This document shows positions 48,313 through 64,000 of a stretch of 64,000 bases of DNA, piece by piece (positions within the stretch are counted from its first letter, which is position 1; each line of letters opens with the position of its first letter). The DNA lies in assembly GCA_963749155.1 (NCBI GenBank), contig CAVVLO010000002.1, positions 640,001 through 704,000 of the forward strand, given 5' to 3'. The notes under the pieces were generated by a model. It was not told the DNA's origin, searched no databases, and saw only the letters and a program-made list of their open reading frames with translations. Both the position numbers and the translations under genes were made by a program. Origin of the DNA: an uncultured Armatimonadia bacterium. GTDB lineage: Bacteria > Armatimonadota > Zipacnadia > CAVVLO01.

Positions 48313-48344
48313 ACGGGTGCTTCTCAAGTGGGAGGAAGCTTCTA

Positions 48345-49190
48345 ATGATAGATTTCGTAAAGATGCATGGCTCAGGCAATGATTTTGTAATGGTTGACCA
48401 GTTCTCTGGCGCCAATCAGTTTACACTTTCCTACCCCGAAGCTGCCCGTAAACTGTGTGACCGCAATTTCGGCATCGGCGCTGATGGACTTATCCTGGTG
48501 CTTCCCTCTGCCAAAGCTGACTTCCAGATGCGTATCTTCAATCCCGATGGGTCAGAGGCAGAGATGTGCGGTAATGGCATCCGGTGCTTCGCCAAGCTGG
48601 TCTTCGACAAGGGCTACACCAAAGATGCCGCCTTCACGGTGGAGACGCTTGCCGGTATCCGCAATCCGCTCATAGTGGAATCTGGGAATCCCGCCACGCT
48701 GGTTGAGGTAAAGATGGGCGAGCCGCGGCTGGATCGCAGCCAGATCCCAATGCTGGGCCCCGAGGGACGCGTTGTGGACGAGGTGCTGGACATTGATGTA
48801 GCCAGGCTGCGTGTCACCTGCGTCAATATGGGCAATCCTCACTGTGTCACTTTCGTGGACGACGTGACCGCCTTCGATGTCGAAACCATCGGGCCTTTTG
48901 TAGAAGAGAACAGGGCCTTCCCCGAGCACACCAACGCCGAATTCGTCGAGGTTATAAGCAAAGACGAACTCAAGATGCGCGTCTGGGAACGCGGCGCCGG
49001 AGAGACCCTCGCCTGCGGCACAGGCGCGTCGGCTTCGGTCGTAGCCGCGGTGCTCAACGGACTTACCGACCGCAAGGTCACCGTGCACCTGCTGGGCGGC
49101 AATCTGCTGATAGACTGGCGCGAATCTGACAATGTAGTCAAAATGACCGGCCCAGCCGAGCAGGTGTTTACAGGCCAGATAGAACTCTAA
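48345..49190 (+). CDS. dapF: Diaminopimelate epimerase
   Basis: KMHGSGNDF, EMCGNG, GNPH, ERGAGETLACGTG. Confidence 0.97.
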   Translation: MIDFVKMHGSGNDFVMVDQFSGANQFTLSYPEAARKLCDRNFGIGADGLILVLPSAKADFQMRIFNPDGSEAEMCGNGIRCFAKLVFDKGYTKDAAFTVETLAGIRNPLIVESGNPATLVEVKMGEPRLDRSQIPMLGPEGRVVDEVLDIDVARLRVTCVNMGNPHCVTFVDDVTAFDVETIGPFVEENRAFPEHTNAEFVEVISKDELKMRVWERGAGETLACGTGASASVVAAVLNGLTDRKVTVHLLGGNLLIDWRESDNVVKMTGPAEQVFTGQIEL

Positions 49191-49278
49191 ACAATATCAA
49201 TCCAAAGCGTGTTCAAACAGCGACTGATTCCCGACTGGCCTGGGAGTCAGTCGCCGGTTTATCAAAGGGGGCTTTCCA

Positions 49279-50454
49279 ATGTTTCAGAGAGCAAGCAGGA
49301 TGAATCTGCCACCCTATCCTTTCGCAGAGCTTGCCCGGCTGAAAAAAGAAGCCTTGGCAAACGGCGCGGATCTGGTAGATTTGGGCATTGGCGATCCGGA
49401 TCTTGCGACGCCGGATTTCATACTGGACGCGCTGGCCAAGTATTCGCGCGATCCCTTCACCCATCACTATGATGAGCCTGGCAACGGGTTGCCCGAGTTC
49501 CGCCAGGCGGTCGCAGAGTGGTACGAACAGCGGTTCGGTGTGAAGGTGGACGCCGATGCCAATGTGCTGGCGCTTATCGGCTCCAAAGAAGGCATCGCGC
49601 ATCTGCCCTGGGTATACATTGGAACCGGCGATGTCACGCTGGTGCCTGACCCAGGTTATCCCGTCTACCGCAGCAGCACTACCTTCGCGGGCGGAGAGTT
49701 CTACCCGATGGGGCTGAGGCGCGAGGCTGACTTCCTGCCCGATTATTCGGAGATTCCTGCCGACATCGTGGATAAGGCCAAGCTGATGTGGCTGAACTAC
49801 CCCAACAATCCAACAGGCGCCCTCGCGGATGCTGACTTCTACCAGGAAACCGCAGACTTTGCTTCCGAAAACAATATCATCGTCGGCTGCGATATGGCCT
49901 ACAGCGAACTGGCCTACGATGGCGAAAAGCCGGTCAGCTTCCTGCAGGCCCAGGGCGGGCTGGAGTACGGGATAGAGTTCCATAGCTTCAGCAAGACTTT
50001 CTCGATGACCGGCTGGCGTATAGGCTTCGCGGTAGGCAATGAGGAGTTAATCGCTGGACTGACCAAGCTCAAGAGCAACATCGACAGCGGGTTGTTCCGA
50101 GCCATCCAGCTTGCCTGCCTTGACGGGCTGAAGGACGACCATGGGTATATCCAGCAGATGATAGCGCGCTACCAGAAGCGGCGCGATATCCTGTGTGGTG
50201 GACTTAAGGAAGCCGGCTTCGACGTATTCGTTCCGAAGGGGGCCTTCTACGTCTGGATGGCTATCCCCGAGGGTTATACCTCGGCTGATTTCGCAGGGCG
50301 CATGCTGCGCGAGTGCGGTATCCTCTGCACGCCAGGCTCGGCGTATGGCAAGTTTGGCGAGGGATATATCCGGATGGCCCTGACACTTGAGGCCGAGGAT
50401 CCCGAAGGCCGACTCAGAGAAGCGGTCGCACGGGTCAAGCGCGTATTTGGCTAG
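49279..50454 (+). CDS. dapL: LL-diaminopimelate aminotransferase (class I/II PLP)
   Basis: LGIGDPD, GSKEGI, NYPNNPTG, SFSKTFSMTGWRIG; adjacent to dapF. Confidence 0.85.
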   Translation: MFQRASRMNLPPYPFAELARLKKEALANGADLVDLGIGDPDLATPDFILDALAKYSRDPFTHHYDEPGNGLPEFRQAVAEWYEQRFGVKVDADANVLALIGSKEGIAHLPWVYIGTGDVTLVPDPGYPVYRSSTTFAGGEFYPMGLRREADFLPDYSEIPADIVDKAKLMWLNYPNNPTGALADADFYQETADFASENNIIVGCDMAYSELAYDGEKPVSFLQAQGGLEYGIEFHSFSKTFSMTGWRIGFAVGNEELIAGLTKLKSNIDSGLFRAIQLACLDGLKDDHGYIQQMIARYQKRRDILCGGLKEAGFDVFVPKGAFYVWMAIPEGYTSADFAGRMLRECGILCTPGSAYGKFGEGYIRMALTLEAEDPEGRLREAVARVKRVFG

Positions 50455-50476
50455 TTATCGGGAAACAAACTGTTTG

Positions 50477-50509
50477 AAGGGACTCGCTCTTTGGGGCGAG
50501 TCCCTTTTT
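50477..50509. terminator. Terminator between convergent genes
   Basis: AAGGGACTCGCTC-TTTG-GGGCGAGTCCCTT then TTT. Confidence 0.85.
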
Positions 50510-50512
50510 CTG

Positions 50513-51424
50513 TCAGGCAGAAGGTGCGGCCGCCAGCAGCGCGGCAACCCCTGCTTCAAGCAGCTCTTTTTGCTGAAGTTGCCGGAGCCAGCGCTGCGGG
50601 ATGCCCTCGAGCCCATATTTGGCCCCGAGCAGGCAGCCAGCAACAGCGCCTACCGTGTCGGCATCATAGGCATATGTAACCGTTGTCGCGACACCTTCCT
50701 CGAAATCATCAAAATTGAGCAGTGACCAAAGGGCCATCAGAGTCGTGTCAATTACATAGCCTCCGCCCTTGAGGTCGTCCAGCCCAAGCTGTGGCAAGGT
50801 AGAAACGGCCTCGACAACACTCTCATCAAGCCCTTCGGCCAAAGCTGCAATCGTTTTGAAGCTGACTTCCTCGCCCTTGAACAGCTTTATGAGTACGCCA
50901 TCCACCAGGGCGCAGCAATCCTGGCAGCGCGGGTCCCAGTGGGTGAGCGCCGAGACCTGCCGAGACCAGGGGCGCCAGTCGTCCAGCTTGTGGCAGTAAA
51001 CGGCTACAGGGCCACTCCTCATCACGCTGCCATTGCCGGCGGCCGCTTTGCCCGAGTCTTCCCAGACTTTGCGCGAGGCGTCCATCATAGGCATCCCACG
51101 CCAGGCAAGAGCACATACCTCGCGTGTCTGCAGGCCAATGTCAGGCGGACTGCTGTCAAACCAGGCAAGGAACTCGGCCGCAACAGCGTCCAGCTTGAGA
51201 CTGCCAGTCTTGCGAACAGCCTCCATTATGCAGACGGCCATCTGGGTATCGTCCGTCCAGGAGCCGGCAGGCCCCTGGTAGGAAGGCATCAACTCGCGCA
51301 CCAGGCCATATTGGGCGATTCGGGCGGCAGGCAGGTCGAATTCCACCGGCGCGCCGAGGGCGTCGGCAATCGCCGCGCCAAAGATTGCACCCAGGGCGCG
51401 TTCATCAAGTGAGGCTTCCTTCAT
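50513..51424 (-). CDS. ADP-ribosylglycohydrolase family protein
   Basis: ADALGAPVEF, WTDDT, GNGSVMR, DADTVGAVAG. Confidence 0.93.
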   Translation of the reverse strand: MKEASLDERALGAIFGAAIADALGAPVEFDLPAARIAQYGLVRELMPSYQGPAGSWTDDTQMAVCIMEAVRKTGSLKLDAVAAEFLAWFDSSPPDIGLQTREVCALAWRGMPMMDASRKVWEDSGKAAAGNGSVMRSGPVAVYCHKLDDWRPWSRQVSALTHWDPRCQDCCALVDGVLIKLFKGEEVSFKTIAALAEGLDESVVEAVSTLPQLGLDDLKGGGYVIDTTLMALWSLLNFDDFEEGVATTVTYAYDADTVGAVAGCLLGAKYGLEGIPQRWLRQLQQKELLEAGVAALLAAAPSA

Positions 51425-51554
51425 AGTCTCATCACCTTGGTAAAGGTATTCGTCAGAGGATGGCGAATTCTTTCTGTAAGACTTATATGGAACCTTGTCA
51501 CCTGATTTTCGTCAACAAGTTATGTGGGCAATATTATGGACGGAGGTGTGGCCG

Positions 51555-52112
51555 ATGCGACGCATACGGGTTGGTATCGCGATTACACTGGCTTTGGTCG
51601 GAGCAGGTCTACTGCTTGCCGGGTGCGGAGGAGCACTTGGTGGGCTGATAGACATCTACCGAAATGGAGAACTCGATTATTCGGACGAGAGTTTCCCAGA
51701 CGGGTCGCTTTTCGATTGTGTAAATATCAAGGCCTCCACAGATGGCACAATATTCGTGCTGATGGGCAGTGACTACGAATTTGGCGATGTTGATGATCCC
51801 TATGTCTATGTGTTGTATGGCAAGGGTGACACCTGGTATGAAATCAGCGGACTTACCTTGATTGACGAGGATGACGACAGCGGGCCAGACAGCGACGCCT
51901 TTCTCGATTACTACGGCTTCGAAGATGACAACTATACGATAGTGCTGACCACCGCCGGCCCGGGCGATGCTGGTGATTATTATTATCGTATATCGGAAGA
52001 AGATGCAGTGCTCGCTCCAACGATGCGGCAGGAAAGCAGTCTGCCGGAAGGCGCAAAAGGGATGACTTTTGGCGACTACCTGGCCAAGTACCACCCAGAG
52101 AAACTGAAATAA
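51555..52112 (+). CDS. Acidic lipoprotein with PPC-like beta-sandwich domain
   Basis: SD GGAGGTG, lipobox LAGC, DPYVYVL...EDDDSG..SDA pattern. Confidence 0.7.
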   Translation: MRRIRVGIAITLALVGAGLLLAGCGGALGGLIDIYRNGELDYSDESFPDGSLFDCVNIKASTDGTIFVLMGSDYEFGDVDDPYVYVLYGKGDTWYEISGLTLIDEDDDSGPDSDAFLDYYGFEDDNYTIVLTTAGPGDAGDYYYRISEEDAVLAPTMRQESSLPEGAKGMTFGDYLAKYHPEKLK

Positions 52113-52132
52113 CTCAGGCGCAAAACCTGGCG

Positions 52133-52163
52133 ATGCGGTCCGGCCTTCCCGGTCGGGCCGCAT
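52133..52163 (+). terminator. Hairpin after the lipoprotein gene (possible terminator)
   Basis: ATGCGGTCCGGCC-TTCCC-GGTCGGGCCGCAT; weak U-tract. Confidence 0.45.
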
Positions 52164-52191
52164 TGACGTTTGGCGATGCGCGGTATACTAT
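52163..52191 (+). promoter_or_regulatory. Sigma70 promoter of rpoZ-dnaJ-prmA
   Basis: TTGACG-17 nt-TACTAT. Confidence 0.65.
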
Positions 52192-52231
52192 TTGCGGGCA
52201 ATAACGCTGACTGGGATTTGAGGGAGAACTG

Positions 52232-52441
52232 ATGGACTTCAACTTTACCGAACTCGAACAGCGCGCCGGTGGTCGCTTCGAGCTCGTGCTGGCGCTGGCT
52301 GACAGAGCGCGCAAAATCAAACTGGGCGCTCCGCCGATGGTCGATGAGGCCGTCGTAGGCTCGCGCAATCCGCTTACCATTGCCATGGCTGAGCTAGCCC
52401 TTGGCAAGATCACCATCCGTCGTAGTGGCGACACCCTTTAA
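52232..52441 (+). CDS. rpoZ: RNA polymerase omega subunit
   Basis: GGRFELVLALADRARKI...NPLTIAMAELALGKI. Confidence 0.88.
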   Translation: MDFNFTELEQRAGGRFELVLALADRARKIKLGAPPMVDEAVVGSRNPLTIAMAELALGKITIRRSGDTL

Positions 52442-52456
52442 CCACCCCTGCCGCAT

Positions 52457-53593
52457 ATGAGAACGACTCGGGACTACTATGAGATACTGGGAGTGGCCCG
52501 GGACGCGACCACCGAGGACTTGAAGCGCGCCTTCCGGAAGAAGGCGATGGAATGCCACCCCGACCGCAATCAGGATGATCCTGAGGCAGAAGGGCGCTTC
52601 AAGGAACTCAACCTCGCCTACCAGGTGCTTTCCGATACCGACAAGCGCGCTCGCTATGACCAATTTGGCGAAGCGGGCGTGTCCGGCAATGGCACAGGGG
52701 GAGGTTTTGATCCAAACGGTGGCGGCTTCGACTTCGGCTTCGGCGATCTGGGCGATGTGTTTGAGGCCTTCTTCGGCGGTCAGCAGCGCACCAGCGGTCC
52801 CCAGCCTGGCGCCTCGCTTCAGTATGAAGTCGAGCTGTCTCTCGAAGAAAGCCGCTTCGGGTGCGAGCGCACCCTGGCCTTCTCGCGCCTTGGGCGCTGC
52901 GCGGTCTGCGAGGGCACAGGTTCGGAAAGCAAATCCGGCCCTGCCGTCTGCACGATGTGCGCGGGCACTGGACGCGTGCGGCAGACTCAAAACACCTTCT
53001 TCGGCCAGTTCAACACCGCGCGGCCTTGTCCCCGATGTCGCGGCACCGGTCGCACAGTGACCGATCCCTGCCCCTCCTGTGAGGGCAGCGGGCTCAAGAG
53101 CGAGGACATCAAGCTCAAGCTCGATATTCCCGAAGGCTCGCTCGAAGGGCAGAAGCTGCGCCTGCGCGGCGAGGGCGATGCGGGGGAACAGGGGATGCCA
53201 GCCGGCGATTTGTTCGTCCTGTTGCGCTTCAAACCCCATGAGCTGTTCGAGCGACATAATCTGGACCTGCATATGGAGCTACCCCTCTCGGCTCTCGATG
53301 CAATGCTTGGCACCGAGCTGCAGGTGCCGACACTTGAAGGCGAAGAGAAGCTGGACATCCGCGCCGGGACCCAGCCGGCCGATGTGTTTCGCATCAAGCA
53401 GAAGGGCCTGTATGACGGCTCGCGCAATCGCAAGGGTGACCTTTACATTCATGCGAAAGTGGTCATCCCTCGCAAGCTGAGTAAAGAAGACCGCCAGCAG
53501 CTCGAAGCCTTGCGCGACAAGCTCGAAGGGGACCATGAGCCTGAGAAGGCCTCCTTCCTCGAGCGGATCAAGCAGATGATGGGAGGGCGCTGA
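52457..53593 (+). CDS. dnaJ: Chaperone DnaJ (class A)
   Basis: J-domain HPD, G/F region, four CxxCxGxG repeats. Confidence 0.97.
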   Translation: MRTTRDYYEILGVARDATTEDLKRAFRKKAMECHPDRNQDDPEAEGRFKELNLAYQVLSDTDKRARYDQFGEAGVSGNGTGGGFDPNGGGFDFGFGDLGDVFEAFFGGQQRTSGPQPGASLQYEVELSLEESRFGCERTLAFSRLGRCAVCEGTGSESKSGPAVCTMCAGTGRVRQTQNTFFGQFNTARPCPRCRGTGRTVTDPCPSCEGSGLKSEDIKLKLDIPEGSLEGQKLRLRGEGDAGEQGMPAGDLFVLLRFKPHELFERHNLDLHMELPLSALDAMLGTELQVPTLEGEEKLDIRAGTQPADVFRIKQKGLYDGSRNRKGDLYIHAKVVIPRKLSKEDRQQLEALRDKLEGDHEPEKASFLERIKQMMGGR

Positions 53594-53594
53594 G

Positions 53595-54476
53595 GTGGAT
53601 ACACGCTCCTGGGCGAAGCTTTCACTTATTGGGCCAGCCGCCGCGCTTGAACCGCTGGAAGGGTTGCTCGCCAAATATGATATGAACGCAACCCAGGTTA
53701 TCTTTGAGGACGACCGGGTGCGCCTGGATTGTTATCTATACACCGATGAACTGAACTCCGATTTGGCAATTGCTATCGGAGGAGACCTGAACTACTTCCC
53801 CACACTTTTCCCCGAACTGCCTGCGGAATATGAACTGAAGCAGGAAGAGCTGGGCCCCCAGCCTGACTGGGCGCTGGCCTGGCGCGATTTCTACGAGCCT
53901 ATCGAAATTGGCAGGCTTCAGGTAGTGCCAAGCTGGCTGGCGGACGAGACACCGGAAATCGAAGGCGGCACCAGGTTGATACTCGATCCGGGACGCGCTT
54001 TCGGCACTGGTCGGCATGAGAGCACCAAACTGCTGCTCGGACTGCTCCAGGAGCAAGACCTGGCAGGCAAGCGCGTGCTGGACTTGGGCACTGGGTCGGC
54101 TATTCTGGCGCTGGCCGCGGCCAGGCTGGGCGCAGGAAAAATTGTCGGCACCGAGATTGATCCCGAAGCCGTTGAAGTGGCTGAAGAGAATGTAAAGCAG
54201 TCCGGCCTTGGCGAACAGATAACTCTACTGACTGGAAGCCTCTTCGAAGGCGTCGAAGGGCGCTTCGACCTCATCCTCTGCAATATCCTCGCCCCGGTAG
54301 TAATTGAAGCCGCAGGGCAAGCGGCGCGCTACCTGGCGCCAGGAGGATTGTTCTTCGGCTCGGGTTTTTACGAGGCGGACTCAGCCCCTGTCATCGAAGC
54401 GCTGCAGGCCTCCGGCTTCGAGGTGAAGGTTGTCACCCTGGGCGAGTGGGCGGCTATCTCGGCAAAACTCGATTGA
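53595..54476 (+). CDS. prmA: Ribosomal protein L11 methyltransferase
   Basis: DPGRAFGTGRHEST, LDLGTGSAILA, NILA; follows dnaJ. Confidence 0.93.
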   Translation: MDTRSWAKLSLIGPAAALEPLEGLLAKYDMNATQVIFEDDRVRLDCYLYTDELNSDLAIAIGGDLNYFPTLFPELPAEYELKQEELGPQPDWALAWRDFYEPIEIGRLQVVPSWLADETPEIEGGTRLILDPGRAFGTGRHESTKLLLGLLQEQDLAGKRVLDLGTGSAILALAAARLGAGKIVGTEIDPEAVEVAEENVKQSGLGEQITLLTGSLFEGVEGRFDLILCNILAPVVIEAAGQAARYLAPGGLFFGSGFYEADSAPVIEALQASGFEVKVVTLGEWAAISAKLD

Positions 54477-54587: not shown

Positions 54588-55382
54588 ATGAAACTGGCTT
54601 GTCAGGAAGGATTGGTACCTGGTACCAGCCTCAAGGAAAAGTGCGAAAATCTGGCAGCCTGGGGCTACAAGGGCATCGAGTTTGGCGGGGGAGGCCTGGC
54701 CGAGCGAGTGGGCGAAGTCAATGCCGCCTGCGATGCGGCAGGCATCAGAGCTTGTTCTATCTGCTCTGGTTATCCAGGGGTGCTGCTTTCGGACCGGGCC
54801 GATGAGCGTAAACTGGCAGTCGATGGCATAAAGGCTTTGTTTAAGGTAGCCGCCGATATCGGCGCGGTGGGAGTCATCGTCGTGCCGCTCTTCGGAGGGC
54901 CAAAACTGCCTGACCTCTCTCCCTTGATGGGCGTACTCGAAGCCGAAACTCAGCTTCTAATCAAGCTATGCGAGCAGCTAGCCCCGACAGCCGAGGATGC
55001 CGGTGTCTGCCTGCTGCTGGAGCCTCTCAACCGGTATGAGACCCATTTCATCAACAGGCTCGAGCAGGCCGTGGCTATCTGCGAAGCCGTGCCAAGCCCT
55101 GGTATACAACTTATGGCAGACTTCTTCCATATGAGCGTCGAAGAACGCGACATCCCCGCGGCTATCGAAGGCGCAGGGGCTTTTGTAAAGCATGTGCATC
55201 TGGCCGAAAGCACCAGGCTCTTCCCCAATCCGGAATACGGCCACACTGATTTCAAGGCGGGATTTGCGGCTTTAAAGGAAGCCGGCTTCGAAAACTATAT
55301 GGCAATCGAATGCATACCCACTGGCAAGGACCGCGCGACCGAACTCAAGGCCACTGCGGCTTATCTGAATTCCTGCATATAA
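54588..55382 (+). CDS. Sugar phosphate isomerase/epimerase (xylose-isomerase-like TIM barrel)
   Basis: LEPLNRYE, DFFHM, HVHLAES.R, AIEC metal ligands typical of the ketose 3-epimerase/IolI-like family. Confidence 0.9.
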   Translation: MKLACQEGLVPGTSLKEKCENLAAWGYKGIEFGGGGLAERVGEVNAACDAAGIRACSICSGYPGVLLSDRADERKLAVDGIKALFKVAADIGAVGVIVVPLFGGPKLPDLSPLMGVLEAETQLLIKLCEQLAPTAEDAGVCLLLEPLNRYETHFINRLEQAVAICEAVPSPGIQLMADFFHMSVEERDIPAAIEGAGAFVKHVHLAESTRLFPNPEYGHTDFKAGFAALKEAGFENYMAIECIPTGKDRATELKATAAYLNSCI

Positions 55383-55400
55383 GCAAGGGAGGCAGGCGTT

Positions 55401-56372
55401 ATGACAGTGCGTGTTGGTTTTGTGGGATGCGGAGGGATGAACTCCGCACATATGCGGTCGCTGGCTCGGCTGGAGTCGGCCCAGCTTGTGGCCTTCTCCG
55501 ACCCGGACCTGGCCAGGGCGCAGTCCAAAGCTGAGGAGTTCGACGGCAGAGCTTACGAAAGCCATGAGGCGATGCTGGAAGCTGAAGCCCTGGACGCTAT
55601 CTATGTTGCGGTGCCGCCCTTCGCTCACACGACTGCCGAGTTGATGGCGGCCGAAAAAGGCTGCGCGGTCTTCGTCGAGAAGCCTATCGCAACTACCCTG
55701 GAGAAGGCGCTCGAGATAAACGAAGGGCTCAAAAAGGCCAGCGTCGTCACCCAGGTCGGCTACCACTGGCGCTGGTTCGACACTACCGAGCAGGCGGCTG
55801 CTCTGCTTCCCAAAGACCAGGTGCATATGGCGCTCGGTTACTGGAATGGCGGCTTCCCCGGGGTTGCCTGGTGGAGGGTACTTGCCGAGTCGGGCGGGCA
55901 GTTCGTCGAGCAGACGACTCACATCTTTGACCTGGCGCGCTATCTGGTCGGCGAAGTAAAACAGGTAGGCGCCTTCGCGACCTTGCGCGCAATGAAAGAC
56001 ACGCCCAATATGGACGTGCCCGATGTCGGTGTGGCAACGCTGGAGTTCGAATCGGGCGCCATCGGCACGGTAATGAACACTTGCGCACTTATGCAAGGCC
56101 ATAAAGTGGGCCTGGCGCTGGTTGGACACGATTTGGTGGTCGAGCACAACGCCGGCCAGTTGCTGGTCATCAAACCCGATGGCAGGGAAGAAGTCACGCC
56201 GACAGTAAATCCCGTCGAGCGCGAAGATGAAGTCTTCATCCAGGCTGTAAAGACTGGAGATACGAGCGCCATCCGCTCGAGCTATGAGGACGGCGTGAAG
56301 AGCCTGGCTGTCTCACTGGCCGTGAATGAAGCCTGGCAGAAGGGCAAAGTCGTCGAGGTACCCCGTATCTAG
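55401..56372 (+). CDS. Gfo/Idh/MocA NAD(P)-dependent oxidoreductase 1
   Basis: GCGGM, VPPFAH, EKP, SGGQFVEQTTH. Confidence 0.93.
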   Translation: MTVRVGFVGCGGMNSAHMRSLARLESAQLVAFSDPDLARAQSKAEEFDGRAYESHEAMLEAEALDAIYVAVPPFAHTTAELMAAEKGCAVFVEKPIATTLEKALEINEGLKKASVVTQVGYHWRWFDTTEQAAALLPKDQVHMALGYWNGGFPGVAWWRVLAESGGQFVEQTTHIFDLARYLVGEVKQVGAFATLRAMKDTPNMDVPDVGVATLEFESGAIGTVMNTCALMQGHKVGLALVGHDLVVEHNAGQLLVIKPDGREEVTPTVNPVEREDEVFIQAVKTGDTSAIRSSYEDGVKSLAVSLAVNEAWQKGKVVEVPRI

Positions 56373-56420
56373 TTACCGAGCGACAATATCGCTTGTATAA
56401 ACCCACTGGAGGAATTGCGA

Positions 56421-57398
56421 ATGGCACTAAGAGTAGGGATGATTGGTTGCGGCGGGATCGCCGAGGCGCACTTGAACACCTTGAAAGGACTGGAAGATGC
56501 AAACCTGGTGGCCTTCCAGGATATCGACGGCGCGAAGGCTGCGCGCTTTGCCGAGCTTGCTGGCCAGGGCAACGTCTACAGCGACTACCGTGAGATGTAC
56601 GACAAGGAAGCCCTCGACGCCGTCTGGGTCTGCGTGCCTCCCTTTGCCCACGAAGATCAGGAGCTTATCGCCTGCGAGAAGGGCATCCCCTTCTTCTGCG
56701 AAAAGCCCGTTGCGCTTACAATGGGCAAGGCGCGCGAGGTAGAAGCGGCCGTCGAGAAGGCAGGGCTTATCACCGGCGCAGGTTATCTGGTGCGTTATAT
56801 GGACACCGCGGCCAAGGTGAAAGAGCTTATCGAAGGCAAGCAAATCGATATGTTCGAGGGCCATTTCTCCGGAGGCTTCCCCGGCGTGTACTGGTGGCGG
56901 CGGATGGAATTATCCGGCGGTCAGTTTGTCGAGCAGACCACTCACATAGTCGATATCTTGCGGTATTTCCTGGGTGATGTAGAGCGCGTTTCGGCCTTTA
57001 TGGCCCAGCGCGATATGGAAGATATTGAGAATATCAATATCCCCACCGTAGGCACCGTGGGGCTTGAGCTCAAATCCGGCGCAGTTGGCGCAGTTCATAA
57101 CACCTGCATCGTATCGCAGGGCTATAAAGTAGGCGCTACCCTCCTTGCGCGCGACCTGGTGGTCGAGTATACTTACACGCGAGTGACTTGGCGCACCCCG
57201 GATGCAAGCGGAGAGTTCACCTGTGACTTCGACGGGATGGTGCGAGAGGACGCTGCTTTCCTCAAAGCCATCCAGACTGGTGACGCTTCGCTAGTCAAGT
57301 CTACATACTCGGACGCCGTTAAGACACTGGCGGTAACCCTGGCAGCCAATGCTTCCGCCGAGAGCAAGCAGGTAGTATCGGTGGACAGCTTCGGCTGA
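56421..57398 (+). CDS. Gfo/Idh/MocA NAD(P)-dependent oxidoreductase 2 (tandem paralogue)
   Basis: GCGGIA, VPPFAH, EKP, SGGQFVEQTTH. Confidence 0.93.
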   Translation: MALRVGMIGCGGIAEAHLNTLKGLEDANLVAFQDIDGAKAARFAELAGQGNVYSDYREMYDKEALDAVWVCVPPFAHEDQELIACEKGIPFFCEKPVALTMGKAREVEAAVEKAGLITGAGYLVRYMDTAAKVKELIEGKQIDMFEGHFSGGFPGVYWWRRMELSGGQFVEQTTHIVDILRYFLGDVERVSAFMAQRDMEDIENINIPTVGTVGLELKSGAVGAVHNTCIVSQGYKVGATLLARDLVVEYTYTRVTWRTPDASGEFTCDFDGMVREDAAFLKAIQTGDASLVKSTYSDAVKTLAVTLAANASAESKQVVSVDSFG

Positions 57399-57418
57399 CC
57401 TGTCTGGAAGGAACACAA

Positions 57419-58243
57419 ATGAGTCGCGCATGTTCGCTTGTTGACGAGAAACAGCTGCGGGCGCAGATATGTGAACTCGGTCATCGGCTCTGGCAGCGTG
57501 AATATGTGGCCAGTAATGACGGCAATATCTCCGTCATTATGAGCCCGGACACGGTGCTTTGCACCCCCACTGGCGTCAGCAAGGGGTTTATGACGCCCGA
57601 TATGCTCATCAAGATAGACCGTCAGGGCAAAAAGCTTGATGGCTATCTCAATCCCTCCTCCGAGATAAAGATGCACCTGAGGGTTTTTGATGAGCGACCT
57701 GACATATGCGCCGTCATCCACGCACATCCACCGACCGCAACAGGTTTCGCCGTGGCCGGGGTACCACTTACCAATATGGTGCTGCCCGAGATCATCATCA
57801 CGCTGAAGGCCATCCCGCTTGCCAAATATGGGACCCCTTCGACGCCGGAGATCCCGGATGCGCTGATGCCCTTCCTGCAGGAATATGATGCTTTCCTGCT
57901 GGAGAACCACGGGGCGCTCACTCTCGGCAGAGACCTGCTTGATGCCTATCACAAGATGGAGCAGGTAGAAGGCTTTGCGCGCATCTCGCTGACTGCGCGT
58001 TTGCTCGGTTCAGAGCGCGCGCTGCCCGACCAGGATGTGAACAGGTTGCTTGAGATGCGCCGGGACTGGGGTCTGGAAGAGCGGTCCGTGTGCGCAGCCT
58101 GCGGTGCATGTGATGCAGAAGCAAGCGTAGGCGATCTGAAGAAAGACCAGAAGCCCTCGGCTTCTCTTACCGACCCGGAGCTTCACAGTATTGTCCGGGC
58201 AGTTACTGAAGAGATTCTCAGCGAGTTGAACAAGTCTAAATAA
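57419..58243 (+). CDS. Class II aldolase/adducin family protein with C-terminal encapsulation peptide
   Basis: DGNIS, PSSE, HAHP, NHG Zn ligands; tail LHSIVRAVTEEILSEL. Confidence 0.92.
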   Translation: MSRACSLVDEKQLRAQICELGHRLWQREYVASNDGNISVIMSPDTVLCTPTGVSKGFMTPDMLIKIDRQGKKLDGYLNPSSEIKMHLRVFDERPDICAVIHAHPPTATGFAVAGVPLTNMVLPEIIITLKAIPLAKYGTPSTPEIPDALMPFLQEYDAFLLENHGALTLGRDLLDAYHKMEQVEGFARISLTARLLGSERALPDQDVNRLLEMRRDWGLEERSVCAACGACDAEASVGDLKKDQKPSASLTDPELHSIVRAVTEEILSELNKSK

Positions 58244-58264
58244 GCAAGACTAAGGTGAGTCAGG

Positions 58265-58645
58265 ATGGCAGGAATGCAAGAAGCTCTGGGGTTGCTTGAG
58301 ACTTTCGGTCTGGTGGCCGGCTTAGAGGGACTTGACGCGATGTTGAAGGCGGCCAAGGTGCGCTTGATCGCCTGCGAGTTCCCTGGCAGCGGTCGCGTAA
58401 CCATGATGGTAGTCGGTGATGTAGGAGCAGTTCAAGCGGCCCTTGACGCCGGCGCGGCCTCGGCAAAAAAGGTCAACGAAGTCGTTAGCTCGCATGTCAT
58501 ACCGCGCCCTGACGAGTTCACCGGCGACCTGGTAGCAATGTCCCGGCTGTACATACCCGACGAAGAGCCCTCGGGCGAAGACGCCGATGTTTCGCCTTCA
58601 CCCAAAGCTCCAGGTCGGCGCGGTGGCGGCGGCAGAAGCAAATAA
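58265..58645 (+). CDS. BMC-H shell hexamer with C-terminal disordered extension
   Basis: ALGLLETFG...DAMLKAAKV...GDVGAVQAA...HVIPRP plus a tail of about 35 aa. Confidence 0.95.
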
Positions 58646-58705
58646 TCAAAGTCGATTTCCCAGTTCGCGTCCAGCGGGCGGGAGTAATTCAAGGAGGTAC
58701 CGTCA

Positions 58706-58981
58706 ATGAACGGTGAAGCATTGGGTCTCATCGAAACTCGCGGTCTGGTTGGCGCCATTGAGGCTGCTGACGCTATGGTGAAGGCAGCTAACGTTACCCT
58801 CATCGGCAAGCAGCAGATTGGCGGCGGACTTGTCTCCGTGATGGTAAGAGGCGACGTAGGCGCCGTGAAAGCTGCTGTCGACGCGGGCGCTACCGCGGCC
58901 AAGAAAGTCGGCGAGCTGCTCTCCGTGCACGTTATTCCACGGCCACACGAGGAACTCAAGAAGATCCTGCCCGAGGGGTAA
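58706..58981 (+). CDS. BMC-H shell hexamer (PduA/EutM-like)
   Basis: [26 protein letters not shown]...[10 protein letters not shown]...HVIPRPH; strong SD AAGGAGG. Confidence 0.97.
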
Positions 58982-59002
58982 GTCTCTCTCAGGCTTGCGT
59001 CA

Positions 59003-59053
59003 GACTAGTTGACAGGCCAGGCGGCTCGCCGAGCTGACTGGCCTTCACTGGTC
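59003..59053 (+). other. Long intercistronic hairpin after the major shell gene
   Basis: GACTAGTTGACAGGCCAG...CTGGCCTTCACTGGTC imperfect stem; no U-tract. Confidence 0.55.
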
Positions 59054-59081
59054 ACCTCCTCGTAAGGGGCGTGGACCTGCG

Positions 59082-59747
59082 GTGCAAGAGCAAGAGCTAG
59101 TTCAGCTAATTGCCGAGCGCGTCCTCCAGCGGCTGAAGGAAAGAGACATCGAGGTTCATCAGGTGTCCCGTGACCGGATCCCGGTGGGCGTTTCTGTGCG
59201 GCACCTGCATATCACCAAAGAGGACTTCGCAGCCCTGTTTGGCGAAGGCGCAGAGCTCAAAGTGCGCAACTGGCTGTATCAGGAAGGCGAGTTCGCCTCT
59301 GATCAGACGGTCACCCTAGTGACCGCCCGGCGGTCGCTGCCAGGTGTGCGCATCCTGGGGCCCTTCCGCCCGAAAACTCAGGTCGAGGTCTGCAGGACCG
59401 ATGCCGTTATGCTCGGAGTAAATCCTCCTGTCAGAGTCTCGGTCAACGAGGCAGGCGGCGGTTCGCGAATCACTTTGGTGGGGCCTGAAGGCTCCATCGA
59501 TGTGGATGATGGTCTTGTGGTCGCGCGCAGGCATGTCCACTGCAATCCGACGGAAGCCGCCGCGCTGGGCATCAAAGAAGGCGACAGGCTGGATCTGGAA
59601 ATACTCTCCGACAGGCCTGTTGTACTGCGAGATGTTGTGGTCCGCACTGGCGAAAAACTCAAACTCCAGTTTCATGTGGATACTGACGAGGCGAATGCCG
59701 CCGATGTCAGATGCGATATGTTCGCCCGTATCGCCGAGGTGAGGTAA
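59082..59747 (+). CDS. pduL: Phosphate propanoyltransferase (PTAC) with N-terminal encapsulation peptide
   Basis: SVRHLH, RILGP, ARRHVH, HVDTDEANAA. Confidence 0.95.
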   Translation: MQEQELVQLIAERVLQRLKERDIEVHQVSRDRIPVGVSVRHLHITKEDFAALFGEGAELKVRNWLYQEGEFASDQTVTLVTARRSLPGVRILGPFRPKTQVEVCRTDAVMLGVNPPVRVSVNEAGGGSRITLVGPEGSIDVDDGLVVARRHVHCNPTEAAALGIKEGDRLDLEILSDRPVVLRDVVVRTGEKLKLQFHVDTDEANAADVRCDMFARIAEVR

Positions 59748-59750
59748 CAA

Positions 59751-60047
59751 ATGAAACTCGGCAAGATTGTGGGTACTGTCGTGGCGACCCAGAAAAATGA
59801 GGCGCTCATTGGCGCCAAGTTGCTGGTCGTGCAAGACTTGAAACTCGATATTGCCCCTGCAAGTGGGTCGGTCGTCTGCGTGGACAGCGTTGGAGCAGGG
59901 ATCGGAGATGTTGTGCTTTATGTCTCCGGCAGCTCTGCCCGGCTTACCGAGGTCAGCAAGGACAGGCCGGTGGATGCCACTGTGATCGCAATCGTTGATA
60001 CAGTCGAGGTCGAGGGCCAGGTGGTCTTCTCCAAAGGGGCTTCCTGA
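59751..60047 (+). CDS. BMC-P pentamer (EutN/CcmL family) 1
   Basis: MKLGKIVGTVVATQK...DSVGAGIGD..GSSAR...AIVD. Confidence 0.95.
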   Translation: MKLGKIVGTVVATQKNEALIGAKLLVVQDLKLDIAPASGSVVCVDSVGAGIGDVVLYVSGSSARLTEVSKDRPVDATVIAIVDTVEVEGQVVFSKGAS

Positions 60048-60328
60048 TGAAGCTGGCCAGAGTCGTGGGCAAGGTCGTTGCGACCATCAAAGACCCCGCG
60101 CTCGAGGGCCTTCCCCTGCTTATTATCCAGCCCCTGGACGAACACCTGACTGATCAGGGCGACTTCTTTGTTGCGATTGACCCTATCGGTACCCGCCAGG
60201 GCGATATTGTCTACTGGGAAAGCAGTCGCGAAGCGCCAGCCGCCGTACCGAGCGAGCCACCGGTTTCCGCCGCCATTGTTGGCCTGGTGGACGCCATCAA
60301 CCTTACCGTGCCAACCGAGGTTAAATGA
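60047..60328 (+). CDS. BMC-P pentamer (EutN/CcmL family) 2
   Basis: MKLARVVGKVVATIK...AIDPIG...SSREA...IVGLVD. Confidence 0.93.
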   Translation: MKLARVVGKVVATIKDPALEGLPLLIIQPLDEHLTDQGDFFVAIDPIGTRQGDIVYWESSREAPAAVPSEPPVSAAIVGLVDAINLTVPTEVK

Positions 60329-60600
60329 GACTGGCCAAGGTCATTGGCAATGTCGTCTCGACACACAAATTGCCCGTCTTCGAGGGGCGCAAGCTGATGC
60401 TTGTGAAACCTTGCAGGCCTGACTACTCGCTGACCGAAGAGGCCGTCGTAGCTATTGATATGGCAGGCGCGGGGCCAGGCGAGATCGTCGTACTGGCAGA
60501 AGAAGGCCGCGCTGTGGCCGACTTGTTAAACAACGGAAAGCGCGCCCCAGCCAGGTCGGTTATTATTGGGATCGTCGATAAAGTCCAGGATTCAGAATAA
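60325..60600 (+). CDS. BMC-P pentamer (EutN/CcmL family) 3
   Basis: MRLAKVIGNVVSTHK...AIDMAGAGPGE...EGRA...IIGIVD. Confidence 0.93.
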   Translation: MRLAKVIGNVVSTHKLPVFEGRKLMLVKPCRPDYSLTEEAVVAIDMAGAGPGEIVVLAEEGRAVADLLNNGKRAPARSVIIGIVDKVQDSE

Positions 60601-61367
60601 TGCCACTCGATGAAGCTGTCGTTCAACAGATTGTAGAGGCCGTAATTGCCCAGCTCCAGGCCGCAGCCGGGACGCCCAAACGGCGCAAGCGCTCTACTGG
60701 CCCGACCGCCCTGCTGGTGGTCGACACCACTGGGCCTGCGCTCGAGGCTGCGCTGCCTGCCGTCAACACTCTGTTAAACGATACTTTGGCCTCCGCCGTG
60801 CTGGTGCCTTCGGGACGGCTTTCCGAGGCCCAGATAACTGACCTGAAGACCAAACTTGGACTCGATGAAGTCTGGGGGCCTGAGGCAGGTTGCCTGCGTT
60901 CGAAAGTGGCAGAGGTTTCAATCGTTGTTGGGGTCTCGCTTTCGGCCGCGCTCCTTGCCAGAACCGCACTGCTGCTTGTGGATGACCCGGCAGCGGAAGC
61001 TTTGCTGGAAGGCGTCTTCGCCGGCAAGCCAGTAATCGCAGCACTGGATGGCTGTGATCCGGAGGCCGCGCCCGTGCAGCTTCCCGCAAGACTGTTCAGG
61101 CGCTTCCAGGAGTACATCGCGGATTTGGATAGCTACGGGCTGAAGCTTTGCGCCGCCGCCGACCTGTCGAAGCAGGTGGTGGCAGCCTTGACCGGTGTGG
61201 CAACGCCGGGAGCGGCTTCAACTCCCGACCTGCTGACCGCCGAGGACGTGCGGCGTATCGCCGATGGCGGGGCCAAGCAGCTCGACATAAGCTCGCGTAC
61301 TATCGTCACTCCTCTCGCGCAGGATCTGGCCGATGAGCGAGGACTAAAGATAAAGGTTTCTGACTAG
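60600..61367 (+). CDS. BMC-associated flavoprotein-like/PduM-like protein with N-terminal encapsulation peptide
   Basis: VVQQIVEAVIAQL helix; GKPVIAALD; C-terminal LLTAEDV...IVTPLAQD motif seen in BMC accessory proteins. Confidence 0.65.
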   Translation: MPLDEAVVQQIVEAVIAQLQAAAGTPKRRKRSTGPTALLVVDTTGPALEAALPAVNTLLNDTLASAVLVPSGRLSEAQITDLKTKLGLDEVWGPEAGCLRSKVAEVSIVVGVSLSAALLARTALLLVDDPAAEALLEGVFAGKPVIAALDGCDPEAAPVQLPARLFRRFQEYIADLDSYGLKLCAAADLSKQVVAALTGVATPGAASTPDLLTAEDVRRIADGGAKQLDISSRTIVTPLAQDLADERGLKIKVSD

Positions 61368-61394
61368 CCAGTTACCCGCAAGGGGGATTATCCA

Positions 61395-62903
61395 ATGGAA
61401 CTTGATCGTAGCGCACTTGAAAGTATCGTAGCCCAGGTAGTGGAGAATCTGCAGAAAGGCGGCGCGCCCGCCGCGGCGGCGCCTAAAGCTGCGGCTCCCA
61501 AAGCCGAGGCTCCGAAGGCTGACGCGCCAAAGGCTGATGCGCCTGCACAAGCAGCTTCCAAACCCGCCAGCAAAGTGCCCAATGACCTTAAGACGGGCGA
61601 TGGGGTCTTCACGGGAATCGACGAAGCCATCGCGGCAGCCAAGGCAGCCCTTGCCGAGTATGCAAAACTTGGCTTGTCCGACCGTAAGGTTATCGTTGCC
61701 GCTCTTCGTAAAGCCGCTCTTGACAGCGCTCACGAGATGGCCGACCTTGCCTGGCGCGAGTCTGCAATGGGCCGTTATGAGGACAAGGTGCTGAAGAACC
61801 AGATGGCCGCGAAAGGCTCTCCCGGCGTCGAATCGCTGAAGCCTTATGAGACCTTCGTCGGCGATCTGGGCACTCATATGGTCTACAACGGGCCCTGGGG
61901 CGTAATTGGCGCCATCACGCCAGTGACCAACCCGACTTCGACCATAATCAATAACGCCATCATCATGCTGGCCGCAGGCAATACTGTGGTCTTCGGACCG
62001 CATCCCCAGGCTATGGTCTGCTCGATAAAGCAACTCCAGATACTAAGCCGGGCGGTGCGCGAGGCAGGCGGGCCTGACAACCTGATGACCTGCGTAGTCG
62101 AGCCGACGATCCGCACGGCCGCCGAGATCTTCAAGTCCGACGACATCGCGATGATCTGCGCGACTGGCGGTCCGGGAGTCGTGCGCGCCGCTATGGAAAA
62201 TGGCAAGCGCGTCGTTGGCGCGGGCGCGGGCAATCCGCCCGTCATCGTGGACGAGACGGCCGACATCAAGCGCGCCGCCTGGTCCATTGTGGAAGGCGCC
62301 AAGTTCGACAACGACCTGCCGTGCGTGGGCGAGAAAGAGATCTTCGTCGTCGATTCGGTCGCCGATGCGCTCATCCGCGAACTGAAGAACCAGGGCGCTT
62401 TCCATGTGCCCGAATCCAGGGTGGACGCGCTCACCCCAATTTGTATCAAGGACGGTAAAGCTAACCGCCCGATGGTCGGCCAGAATGCCGAGATCATCCT
62501 CAAAGCCGCTGGCGTTGACGTCTCGGGCGACCCGCCAATTGGCATCTTCGAGACCGACTTCGAGAACGATGTGGTGCAGGAAGAACAGCTTATGCCCATC
62601 GTGCCAATCGTACGTTGCCGCAACTTCGAGCAGGCACTGGAATACTCTCGCCTGGCCGAACACGGATATACGCACACCGCGCTGATGCACTCGACCAATA
62701 TCGCGCGCATCACGGAGTTCACCCGCGTGATGCAATGTACGATCACCATAATCAACGGCCCCTCGTATGCTTATACAGGCACCGAGGGCGAAGGTTATGT
62801 AACCTTGACGGTTGGCACCAAGACAGGCGATGGCGTCAGTAATCCGTTGACTTTCACGCGGCGCAGACACACGTCCTTCTCGCGCACGCTCAATCTCATC
62901 TAG
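61395..62903 (+). CDS. CoA-acylating aldehyde dehydrogenase (PduP/EutE family) with encapsulation peptide and linker
   Basis: ITPVTNPT, ATGGPGVV, GAGAGNPP, catalytic PCVGEKE, GEGYVT. Confidence 0.95.
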   Translation: MELDRSALESIVAQVVENLQKGGAPAAAAPKAAAPKAEAPKADAPKADAPAQAASKPASKVPNDLKTGDGVFTGIDEAIAAAKAALAEYAKLGLSDRKVIVAALRKAALDSAHEMADLAWRESAMGRYEDKVLKNQMAAKGSPGVESLKPYETFVGDLGTHMVYNGPWGVIGAITPVTNPTSTIINNAIIMLAAGNTVVFGPHPQAMVCSIKQLQILSRAVREAGGPDNLMTCVVEPTIRTAAEIFKSDDIAMICATGGPGVVRAAMENGKRVVGAGAGNPPVIVDETADIKRAAWSIVEGAKFDNDLPCVGEKEIFVVDSVADALIRELKNQGAFHVPESRVDALTPICIKDGKANRPMVGQNAEIILKAAGVDVSGDPPIGIFETDFENDVVQEEQLMPIVPIVRCRNFEQALEYSRLAEHGYTHTALMHSTNIARITEFTRVMQCTITIINGPSYAYTGTEGEGYVTLTVGTKTGDGVSNPLTFTRRRHTSFSRTLNLI

Positions 62904-62915
62904 AAGTGAGTCAAA

Positions 62916-64000
62916 ATGGCAGGTAGCCAGTTTCTGGATAAAGTCCGCGAGGCTGGGGTGGTCGGCGCCGGTGGCGCTGGCTTCCCAACCCATGTAAAAC
63001 TCGATGCCAAGGTGGATTGGCTGATAGCCAACGCTGCCGAGTGCGAACCGCTGCTGCACGCCGATGCGGCCGTACTCGAACACGAAGGCGACAAGGTCAT
63101 CCGCGGGATGATCGCCGCCGCCGAGCAGGTGGGCGCGACCCGCATCACCATCGCAATCAAGCGCAAGCACACCGAGCTCATCGAGGCGCTTCAGGCCCAG
63201 GTCAAAGGCACGCCGGTTGAGCTCTGCGAACTCAACGATACCTATCCTGCTGGCGATGAGCATGTGATGGTCTACGAAGTCACTGGCCGCATCGTCCCCG
63301 AGGGGGGCATCCCCCTTCAGGCAGGCTGCGTGGTCAGCAACGTCGAGACCTACCTCAATGTCGCTGGCGCGCTCGATGATGAGCCGGTTACCATGAAATA
63401 TGTCACTGTAAATGGCGCAGTGGCAGAACCGCAGACCTTCATCGCGCCGATTGGCATAAGTCTGGAAGCACTTATCCGCCAGGCTGGCGGGCCCACGATT
63501 AACGACTATGTCGTCGTCACTGGCGGCTGTATGATGGGCCGCATCGGCTCTGTAGATGAATCACTCACCAAGACAGTCAACGCGGTACTCGTCTTCCCGC
63601 CGGACCATGAGGTCGTCTCGAAGACGAAGCTCACGATGACAGCCGCCGAGACTCAGGGCAGCGCCGCCTGTTGCCAGTGCTGGGATTGCACCAAGGTGTG
63701 TCCGCGCTATCTGCTGGGCCACAACCTGCAACCGCACCTTACGATGCGCGCGATGGCTTATGGCAAGCCGGAAAACTCCGATGCTATCACTATGGCGTGG
63801 CTTTGCTGCGAATGTGGCACCTGTGAGATGTATTGTCCTATCCGCCTGTCGCCCCGGCGCGTGTATCAGGGCATCAAAGCAATGCTCAAAGAGGCCGGCG
63901 TGAAGAATCCCCACACCAACGCGGACCTGCAGGCGCGCGAGACCAGGCCTTACCGCCTGGTGCCCTCAAACAGACTGCGCGCCAGGCTCAATGTAGAGCG
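62916..64000 (+). CDS. pduS: PduS/RnfC-like flavin and 4Fe-4S oxidoreductase (runs off the right edge)
   Basis: Manual translation: AGVVGAGGAGFPTHVK, NAAECEPLL, YPAGDE, SLBB region, CCQCWDCTKVCP, CCECGTCEMYCP. Confidence 0.9.
   Translation, partial: MAGSQFLDKVREAGVVGAGGAGFPTHVKLDAKVDWLIANAAECEPLLHADAAVLEHEGDKVIRGMIAAAEQVGATRITIAIKRKHTELIEALQAQVKGTPVELCELNDTYPAGDEHVMVYEVTGRIVPEGGIPLQAGCVVSNVETYLNVAGALDDEPVTMKYVTVNGAVAEPQTFIAPIGISLEALIRQAGGPTINDYVVVTGGCMMGRIGSVDESLTKTVNAVLVFPPDHEVVSKTKLTMTAAETQGSAACCQCWDCTKVCPRYLLGHNLQPHLTMRAMAYGKPENSDAITMAWLCCECGTCEMYCPIRLSPRRVYQGIKAMLKEAGVKNPHTNADLQARETRPYRLVPSNRLRARLNVE

Follow-up and report, generated by a model that had tools for sequence, protein, structure and literature searches.

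A probable MIC4/MUF2-type aldolase microcompartment locus in an uncultured Armatimonadota bacterium, with a putative epimerase-dehydrogenase front end and a candidate second aldolase cargo

The window analysed here, a stretch of 64,000 nucleotides from contig CAVVLO010000002.1 of an uncultured Armatimonadia bacterium, ends with a tightly packed run of genes in which a bacterial microcompartment (BMC) operon with a class II aldolase is preceded by a TIM-barrel sugar enzyme and two Gfo/Idh/MocA dehydrogenases. Which type of microcompartment does this locus encode, which sugar would it process, and do the three front genes belong to it? Judging from sequence and gene context, we consider it rather probable that the locus encodes a MIC4/MUF2-type aldolase metabolosome, which would cleave rhamnulose- or fuculose-1-phosphate inside the shell; the TIM and Gfo enzymes, devoid of an encapsulation peptide (EP), would prepare sugars in the cytosol, and a second aldolase, encoded by a satellite gene elsewhere in the genome, would be a further cargo.

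A preliminary description of the window had listed the parts of this plus-strand run as those of an aldolase-type metabolosome. A profile search of the window open reading frames (ORFs) found all of them at the expected place, the PF00596 aldolase, aldehyde dehydrogenase, PduL and shell genes included. The genes are listed below in window numbering, the last three lying past the window.

54588..55382, plus strand: TIM-barrel sugar epimerase/isomerase (TIM), PF01261 (AP_endonuc_2)
55401..56372, plus strand: Gfo/Idh/MocA dehydrogenase 1 (Gfo1), of an uncharacterised family common across the phylum
56421..57398, plus strand: Gfo/Idh/MocA dehydrogenase 2 (Gfo2), same family, 47% identity to Gfo1
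57419..58243, plus strand: class II aldolase (FucA-fold), PF00596, signature enzyme
58265..58645, plus strand: BMC-H with a C-terminal extension
58706..58981, plus strand: BMC-H of standard length
59082..59747, plus strand: PduL phosphotransacylase, PF06130, with an N-terminal EP-like helix
59751..60600 (59751-60047, 60047-60328, 60325-60600), plus strand: BMC-P triplet, PF03319
60600..61367, plus strand: eut_hyp/PF02441-like flavoprotein homolog, 255 aa, with an N-terminal EP-like helix
61395..62903, plus strand: CoA-acylating aldehyde dehydrogenase (AldDH, PduP type), with an N-terminal EP-like helix and catalytic Cys310
62916..64232, plus strand: PduS homolog, running past the window end (64000)
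64247-64795, plus strand: PduT-type BMC-T with a pore Cys
64824-66029, plus strand: acetate/propionate kinase, PF00871
66035-66412, plus strand: ASRT protein, PF07100, final gene of the run

The intergenic gaps within the run range from -4 to 100 bp, and prmA is separated from it by 111 bp. The operon ends with the ASRT gene at base 66412. A genome-wide profile search found matches to PF00936 or PF03319 nowhere else, making this the sole shell locus. Retrieval of the DNA past 64000, recommended in the preliminary description, recovered PduT, the acetate kinase and the ASRT gene, and none of the genes up to 66412 encodes an alcohol dehydrogenase, which had also been expected there. Diol dehydratase, ethanolamine lyase (EutBC), glycyl radical enzyme (GRE), DeoC and RpiB, already reported as missing from the visible part, are likewise absent down to the operon end.

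AldDH matches NF011927 with 551 bits for a cut-off of 403. The 255-aa flavoprotein-like protein has no Pfam match; it matches TIGR02536 with an E-value of 7e-11 and is PF02441-like by its Atlas features. A eut_hyp/PF02441-like protein is an EP-bearing accessory of SPU4 according to Sutter 2021 (PMC8217296). EP-like helices were found on AldDH, PduL, the flavoprotein-like protein and the aldolase, and none on TIM, Gfo, PduS or the kinase. Lacking an encapsulation peptide, the TIM-barrel enzyme is therefore probably cytosolic.

The locus aldolase keeps E82, H101, H103 and H164 intact and has a Cys-rich linker and a C-terminal EP-like helix. Such tails accompany shell genes throughout the phylum: shell-linked aldolases have tails of 46-92 aa with an EP-like helix (21/21), and shell-less ones have tails of 0-45 aa (21/21). 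The 80 best named relatives of the aldolase are mostly BMC enzymes of Bacillota and Acidobacteriota. A tree built by a quick method only places the window sequence outside the clades of Bacillota and Acidobacteriota, at a fork that it does not resolve.

By gene content, the core of the locus fits the MIC4/MUF2 type. MIC4 is defined by an AldDh, a phosphotransacylase (PTAC), a PF00596 aldolase, an acetate kinase, a BMC-P triplet and PduS/PduT (PMC8217296, Supplementary Data 2), and the supplement of the same paper catalogues an Armatimonadetes locus as MUF2. As the full locus contains every MIC4 component (AldDh with an N-terminal EP, PTAC, PF00596 aldolase, PF00871 kinase, BMC-P triplet, PduS with a pore-Cys PduT) and an Armatimonadetes locus is already filed as MUF2, on gene content it does not represent a new type. 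The new subtype suggested in the preliminary description was thus overstated: the match to a standard catalogued type, named there as the outcome that would speak against it, is found on gene content.

The correspondence with MIC4 has its differences: the MIC4 listing omits Armatimonadota (PMC8217296), and the locus AldDH clusters with other Armatimonadota, apart from KSB1 and Bacillota loci of MIC4-like content. The MIC4 labels of loci L061, L013 and L029 were assigned here from gene content. The TIM/Gfo front end, ASRT and PF01116 cargo go unmentioned in the readable supplements of Sutter 2021, whose locus diagrams are pictures that could show the front end or PF01116. With MUF2, the locus shares an AldDh, a PTAC and a PF00596 aldolase with a C-terminal EP, a BMC-P triplet, also present in the Armatimonadetes locus filed there, at least two BMC-H and a PVM-like predicted substrate; however, neither acetate kinase nor PduS is part of the MUF2 description, its aldolase is often on a satellite and its members are mostly Gemmatimonadetes.

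The alternative label of the preliminary description, PVM-like, does not hold in the strict sense of Sutter 2021, because the AldDH falls outside the GRM5/PVMlike clade. In a quick tree of 53 rows, its group (SH-aLRT 91) comprises 17 further rows, most of them Armatimonadota, and it stays outside a 99-supported clade containing L020, from a genome labelled PVMlike; this is the AldDH tree only, and the PVMlike definition also covers PTAC and BMC-P. Bacillota loci of the PVMlike, GRM5 and MUF3 types have aldolases 43-61% identical to that of the locus and RhaB and RhaI neighbours, but their AldDH is in a separate clade, and the locus has no GRE and three BMC-P where they have one. The PVM compartment of Planctomycetes and Verrucomicrobia, which processes fucose and rhamnose, has the same class II aldolase signature, two BMC-H, BMC-P triplet and acetate kinase, and works alike. 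It occurs in another phylum, and the locus differs from it by the lack of lactate/malate dehydrogenase and DeoR (a DeoR is present in the f18 relatives) and by the presence of PduS/PduT; the AldDH and aldolase trees contain no PVM sequence.

Other types do not fit. DeoC (PF01791) and RpiB (PF02502), which mark SPU, are absent from the locus, and a 28% DeoC-family match lies elsewhere in the genome. The signature enzymes of PDU, EUT and GRM (diol dehydratase, EutBC, GRE) are also all absent from the locus; genome-wide, EutB was not found, PduG gave no match, PduC was searched without a positive control, and GREs are present at unlinked positions. Our literature searches retrieved no relevant paper linking Armatimonad with microcompartment, or microcompartment, metabolosome or encapsulation peptide with bisphosphate aldolase or PF01116.

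The host is most likely a member of the Armatimonadota. Among the 120 listed Gfo1 relatives, all named NCBI organisms are Armatimonadota or Fervidibacter, and the 16S sequence has 4-6 mismatches to three probes for the Planctomycetes-Verrucomicrobia-Chlamydiae (PVC) group, in keeping with the earlier remark that the host was unlike Planctomycetes or Verrucomicrobia. Such loci occur across many Armatimonadota families: BMC-P scored above cut-off in 25 of the 401 phylum genomes sampled, all 25 carry the aldolase clade, and 7 other genomes show the full order aldolase-H-H-PduL-PPP-flavoprotein-AldDH. A variant was observed in family f30 (L139-L141, L348, L349), whose operon comprises aldolase, BMC-H genes, flavoprotein, one BMC-P, AldDH, PduS, a radical SAM gene and PduT, without PduL; RhaI, RhaA and FucI were not found in any of the 5 genomes concerned.

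The front end is linked to the aldolase/shell locus and not there by accident; TIM-Gfo is also common as a shell-free module. In 25/93 genomes from 6 families, a gene of the same Gfo family is found upstream of the aldolase, either adjacent to it or one gene away. Within the 25 shell-bearing genomes, 11, this one included, have Gfo upstream of the aldolase, with shell genes right behind the aldolase in each. Genome G127, of another class, has the order TIM-Gfo-aldolase-H-H-PduL, running to the contig end. In at least 12 genomes, TIM stands in front of Gfo, and the TIM-adjacent and aldolase-adjacent Gfos are intermixed within one tree. The suspected tie between the front end and the BMC is thus borne out for Gfo, and less so for the full trio with two Gfo copies, which was seen in this genome only. 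The six shell genomes lacking RhaI, RhaA and FucI all carry the Gfo/TIM pair, though they represent two families only, so that a replacement of FucI by Gfo/TIM is only partly supported.

As to function, the best functionally named solved relative of TIM is the 3-keto-D-glucoside 4-epimerase 6WN6 (E. coli YcjR, E=3e-27), which suggests a sequence of oxidation, epimerisation and reduction, and the named solved relatives of Gfo are mostly sugar or inositol dehydrogenases. A GH29 gene follows TIM-Gfo in 2 of 11 annotated metagenome loci. The E. coli YcjQRS cluster, described for guloside-to-glucoside epimerisation (PMC11543891), likewise combines one TIM-barrel 3-keto epimerase with two sugar dehydrogenases. 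It differs by its distant homology only and by having no BMC link. YcjQ belongs to another dehydrogenase class than Gfo.

Outside the locus, the genome encodes a second aldolase of another fold, whose gene follows a kinase gene:

C5:412555-413595, minus strand: satellite PF01116 (FBA-type) aldolase with a Cys motif and an EP-like tail
C5:412555-414817, minus strand: satellite pair, acetate kinase paralog and PF01116 aldolase

We built an EP profile from 91 aldolase tails of other genomes and ran it on the 28,916 ORF termini of this genome. The locus aldolase ranked first and the satellite second (E=0.0075), the next terminus having an E-value of 0.48. The satellite has a CxxCxxC linker like that of the locus aldolase and is distinct from the housekeeping fructose-bisphosphate aldolase (FBA), which sits among pfk-like genes and retains the DPR motif. 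Its orthologs (49-55% identity) were detected in 7/25 shell-bearing genomes, all 7 of which also carry the TIM-Gfo pair, against 0/16 other relatives; the kinase-PF01116 pair recurs in G005. Among 120 homologs, 113 have at least 320 aa; 79 of these show the Cys motif, and 59/113 score at least 10 bits on the EP profile, against 4/28,916 genome termini. All 113 keep the catalytic D82, H83, H181 and H209, all have Ala in place of the 6-phosphate-site Ser (position from PMC10665668), and none has the DPR motif. Known class II FBA, TBA and SqiA enzymes (PF01116) share the fold, Zn ligands and DHAP-phosphate motifs (DHAP, dihydroxyacetone phosphate), but the satellite has AxVH replacing the Ser site, no DPR Arg and no SqiA GQK motif, plus the Cys motif and EP-like tail. 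A sulfoquinovose (SqiA) reading is unsupported, the GQK motif being absent.

The gene was then looked for in 50 named genomes among the 80 of the best aldolase relatives. Ten matched, and in 3, all Bacillota, it lies inside a BMC operon. Limnochordia and Clostridia DTU080 have the order kinase-FBA-H-H-PduL-PduS-PduT-AldDH. In Neomoorella stamsii (L350:1-16526), where the locus is complete, the order is H-FBA-H-PduL-P-AldDH-PduS-PduT-kinase, the PF01116 aldolase carries an internal EP-like insert and 19 kb contain no PF00596 gene; LacI, PfkB, PMI-like, sugar ABC, URO-D and DUF4432 genes precede it. This locus is a candidate for an uncatalogued BMC type in a cultured strain, which has a second locus of the PF00596 type (L005). 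N. carbonis has the same cluster without shell genes, its aldolase giving no EP score. From these features, the satellite is a fairly plausible second cargo of the shell. An FBP-forming 'class II aldolase' was proposed in SPU shells by Dwyer 2024 (PMC11585597), with no mention of PF01116. No satellite-aldolase relative was found on viral contigs, and a single-sequence AlphaFold prediction for the satellite was set aside for its low quality (pLDDT 53.7).

The preliminary description had left the substrate as an unknown sugar or polyol. The gene context narrows this in part, since it points to rhamnose/fucose-type sugars, and a methylpentose core is likely. A RhaB-like kinase is present in 20/80 loci of the best named aldolase relatives. 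Locus L012 reads RhaI-RhaB-aldolase-shell-AldDH-PduS-PduT-kinase-DeoR-ASRT, and L061 contains FucI, RhaB, a lactate racemase and an FAD oxidase; in L018 as in L061, a neighbouring lactate racemase gene speaks for lactate. This genome has a RhaB match of 498 bits (cut-off 528), 6 strong GH29 matches and a LarA homolog; canonical FucI (54 bits for a cut-off of 850) and RhaA were not found in it. In the 24 other shell genomes, RhaB occurs in 22, RhaI in 13 and canonical FucI in 6, and RhaA was found in 5 of 12 shell genomes tested. Aldolases of this kind have been tied to fucose and rhamnose (PMC3557285, PMC4207490, PMC8156839), and in C. phytofermentans growth on fucose induces the aldolase gene of the locus 86x, that on rhamnose 62x (PMC3557285).

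The proposed pathway would run as follows. L-rhamnose would be converted to rhamnulose-1-phosphate by RhaI and RhaB, encoded elsewhere, as the gene context suggests. Inside the shell, the locus aldolase would split the deoxy-ketose-1-phosphate into DHAP and L-lactaldehyde. According to established BMC chemistry, AldDH would then yield lactyl-CoA, PduL lactyl-phosphate, and the kinase lactate and ATP. NADH would be re-oxidised by PduS/PduT, as the locus has no alcohol dehydrogenase. The weakest step is that of the front end: Gfo might oxidise an aldose or glycoside to its keto form, TIM epimerise it and Gfo reduce it back, following the YcjS/YcjR/YcjQ logic. Such a module could give L-fucose or another 6-deoxyhexose access to the pathway without a canonical FucI in the genome. 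This epimerisation mechanism, drawn by analogy, is tentative, and we would sooner doubt it than rely on it. FucA-fold and FBA-fold aldolases have opposite C3 preference. The satellite would cleave a ketose-1-phosphate without 6-phosphate and of opposite C3 configuration, its aldehyde entering the same core. A broader and more speculative reading, on the unlikely side, is that the EP-bearing PF01116 clade, sole aldolase of the N. stamsii locus, is an unrecognised BMC signature enzyme, and that a single shell here houses both folds with opposite C3 preference, a TIM/Gfo module replacing fucose isomerase so that a whole deoxy-sugar family could be handled.

Several observations weigh against the proposed reading. 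TIM is found in 192/401 and the Gfo clade in 138/401 phylum genomes, against 25 with shells; TIM-Gfo is adjacent in 21/80 metagenome loci, none with shell genes; 8/25 shell genomes show neither TIM-Gfo nor Gfo-aldolase adjacency; TIM occurs in 0/80 named aldolase loci, and neither TIM nor Gfo has a characterised close relative. The Gfo-aldolase pair of family f10 is shell-less and RhaB was not found in 10/10 of its genomes, so that Gfo may serve another sugar, and family f18 keeps Gfo beside the aldolase despite a canonical FucI, which argues against Gfo simply replacing FucI. In this genome, RhaI is split across two frames (C3:85010-86168), by a possible assembly error, since other genes of the assembly are also in pieces, or by a real lesion, and four distant FucI-fold matches might isomerise fucose. 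The satellite orthologs among relatives come from three families only, and 54/113 long homologs score below 10 bits on the EP profile. These counts could be accommodated by an ordinary rhamnose/fucose MIC4/MUF2 metabolosome in which TIM-Gfo is a general sugar module sharing the operon and the satellite tail is incidental: within the phylum, TIM and Gfo outnumber shells 5-8 times over, neither has an EP, and the satellite ortholog is missing in 18/25 shell genomes. We regard this as unlikely, because one and the same Gfo family is found next to the aldolase in 6 families, Gfos from both contexts mix in one tree, and satellite orthologs stand among shell genes in three Bacillota. Still less probable is that Gfo supplies the missing alcohol dehydrogenase, reducing or oxidising the aldehyde that the aldolase releases and recycling NAD(H), a role filled in PVM and GRM5 by unrelated dehydrogenases. 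The locus indeed has no such enzyme, Gfo remains beside the aldolase without shell genes in 14 genomes, and substitutions of this kind were described by Axen 2014 (PMC4207490); but Gfo has no EP when four other proteins have one, at least 12 genomes pair it with a sugar epimerase, most of its named solved relatives are dehydrogenases of sugars or inositol, and PduS/PduT are present.

Compatible with the proposed reading, though about as improbable as the preceding alternative or slightly more so, is a pentose substrate (D-lyxose or D-xylose through the FBA fold, L-lyxose or D-arabinose through the FucA fold), giving glycolaldehyde and then glycolate. The tailed FBA of L353 adjoins a D-lyxose-isomerase-family gene and a PfkB kinase, and the loss of the 6-phosphate clamp fits a pentulose-1-phosphate equally well. 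A 61% homolog of the L353 isomerase and a 53% homolog of the N. stamsii-locus PfkB exist in this genome, but both are unlinked to the locus; the L353 enzyme is without the AxVH motif, and the lactate racemase neighbours argue for lactate. Finally, an inositol microcompartment (IolG/IolI-like front end, IolJ-like aldolase) or a GRM5-like one with a remote GRE is very improbable. Weak IolG and IolO matches would suit the former, which we rejected because no IolD was found above cut-off in 37 genomes, this one giving no match. For the latter, the genome has 15 PFL-like (PF02901) matches, about 11 genes, but 0/8 GREs scanned reach the cut-off of a named family (internal GRE peptides being outside the scan) and the AldDH lies outside the GRM5-like clade.

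MIC4 and MUF2 are catalogued only as incomplete-core or unknown-function compartments, for which the gene context described here offers a testable substrate class. The link to the aldolase narrows the chemistry of the TIM-Gfo pair, a sugar module that is widespread and as yet unassigned. If the proposal is true, the tailed FBA-fold aldolase would be a new signature enzyme in the BMC repertoire, and N. stamsii DSM 26217 is a cultured organism with such a locus.

Additional observations were made on the front end and on aldolases of related loci. Some f10 pairs (L107, L110, L112, L114, L116-L118) are accompanied by AGE-family epimerase, URO-D-like, metallo-beta-lactamase-fold and aldo/keto reductase genes. 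A weak BMC-P match, below cut-off (G155:C35:70159, L275; E=4e-4), lies 1.6 kb behind a tail-less Gfo-aldolase pair and may be a decayed shell locus or chance. Homologs of Gfo1 and AldDH show an equal longest-contig value (11,492), as do those of the satellite and AldDH (20,236; 36,159), which suggests in both cases that they share contigs. Two Clostridia loci (L352:4204-5130, L353:7014-7922) encode other PF01116 aldolases with C-terminal EP-like helices and no AxVH, their neighbours being GH29, or PfkB and the D-lyxose-isomerase-family gene. Two divergent BMC operons lie back to back in L013:394-13533 and L074, L013 having three tailed aldolases (two PF00596, one PF01116).

Within the operon, the front genes have a GC content at third codon positions of 0.62-0.72, and the closing genes PduS, PduT, kinase and ASRT a higher one of 0.74-0.84. 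This tail may be a later addition, most relatives being without it; an ASRT homolog (53%) likewise closes the rhamnose-linked locus L012. A promoter and terminator scan stayed at chance (1 promoter for 3.6 expected, 11 terminators for 9.7), and no hairpin is claimed after ASRT. RNA reads gave no evidence of expression or co-transcription: one RNA run contained 7% of the sequence words, and its 4 short pieces (at least 99% alike, depth 2-4) cover window positions ~57320-58960 only and come from an oligo-dT library possibly containing DNA.

Elsewhere in the genome, the GRE genes (about 11) are unusually many: C4:7570, C6:28858, C2:1348141, C1:31274, C2:772375, C3:580344-583927, C1:306487, C5:252603 and C5:333641. 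A further class II aldolase lies beside a RuBisCO-like protein at C1:436236 (L237). Upstream of the run, window positions 43695-54476 hold housekeeping genes, with an ADP-ribosylglycohydrolase and prmA identified by profile scan and others that we take from their translations to be mutS, mutL, miaA in two frames, dapF, dapL and dnaJ. This region also contains a lipoprotein-like orphan of 205 aa at 51495-52112.

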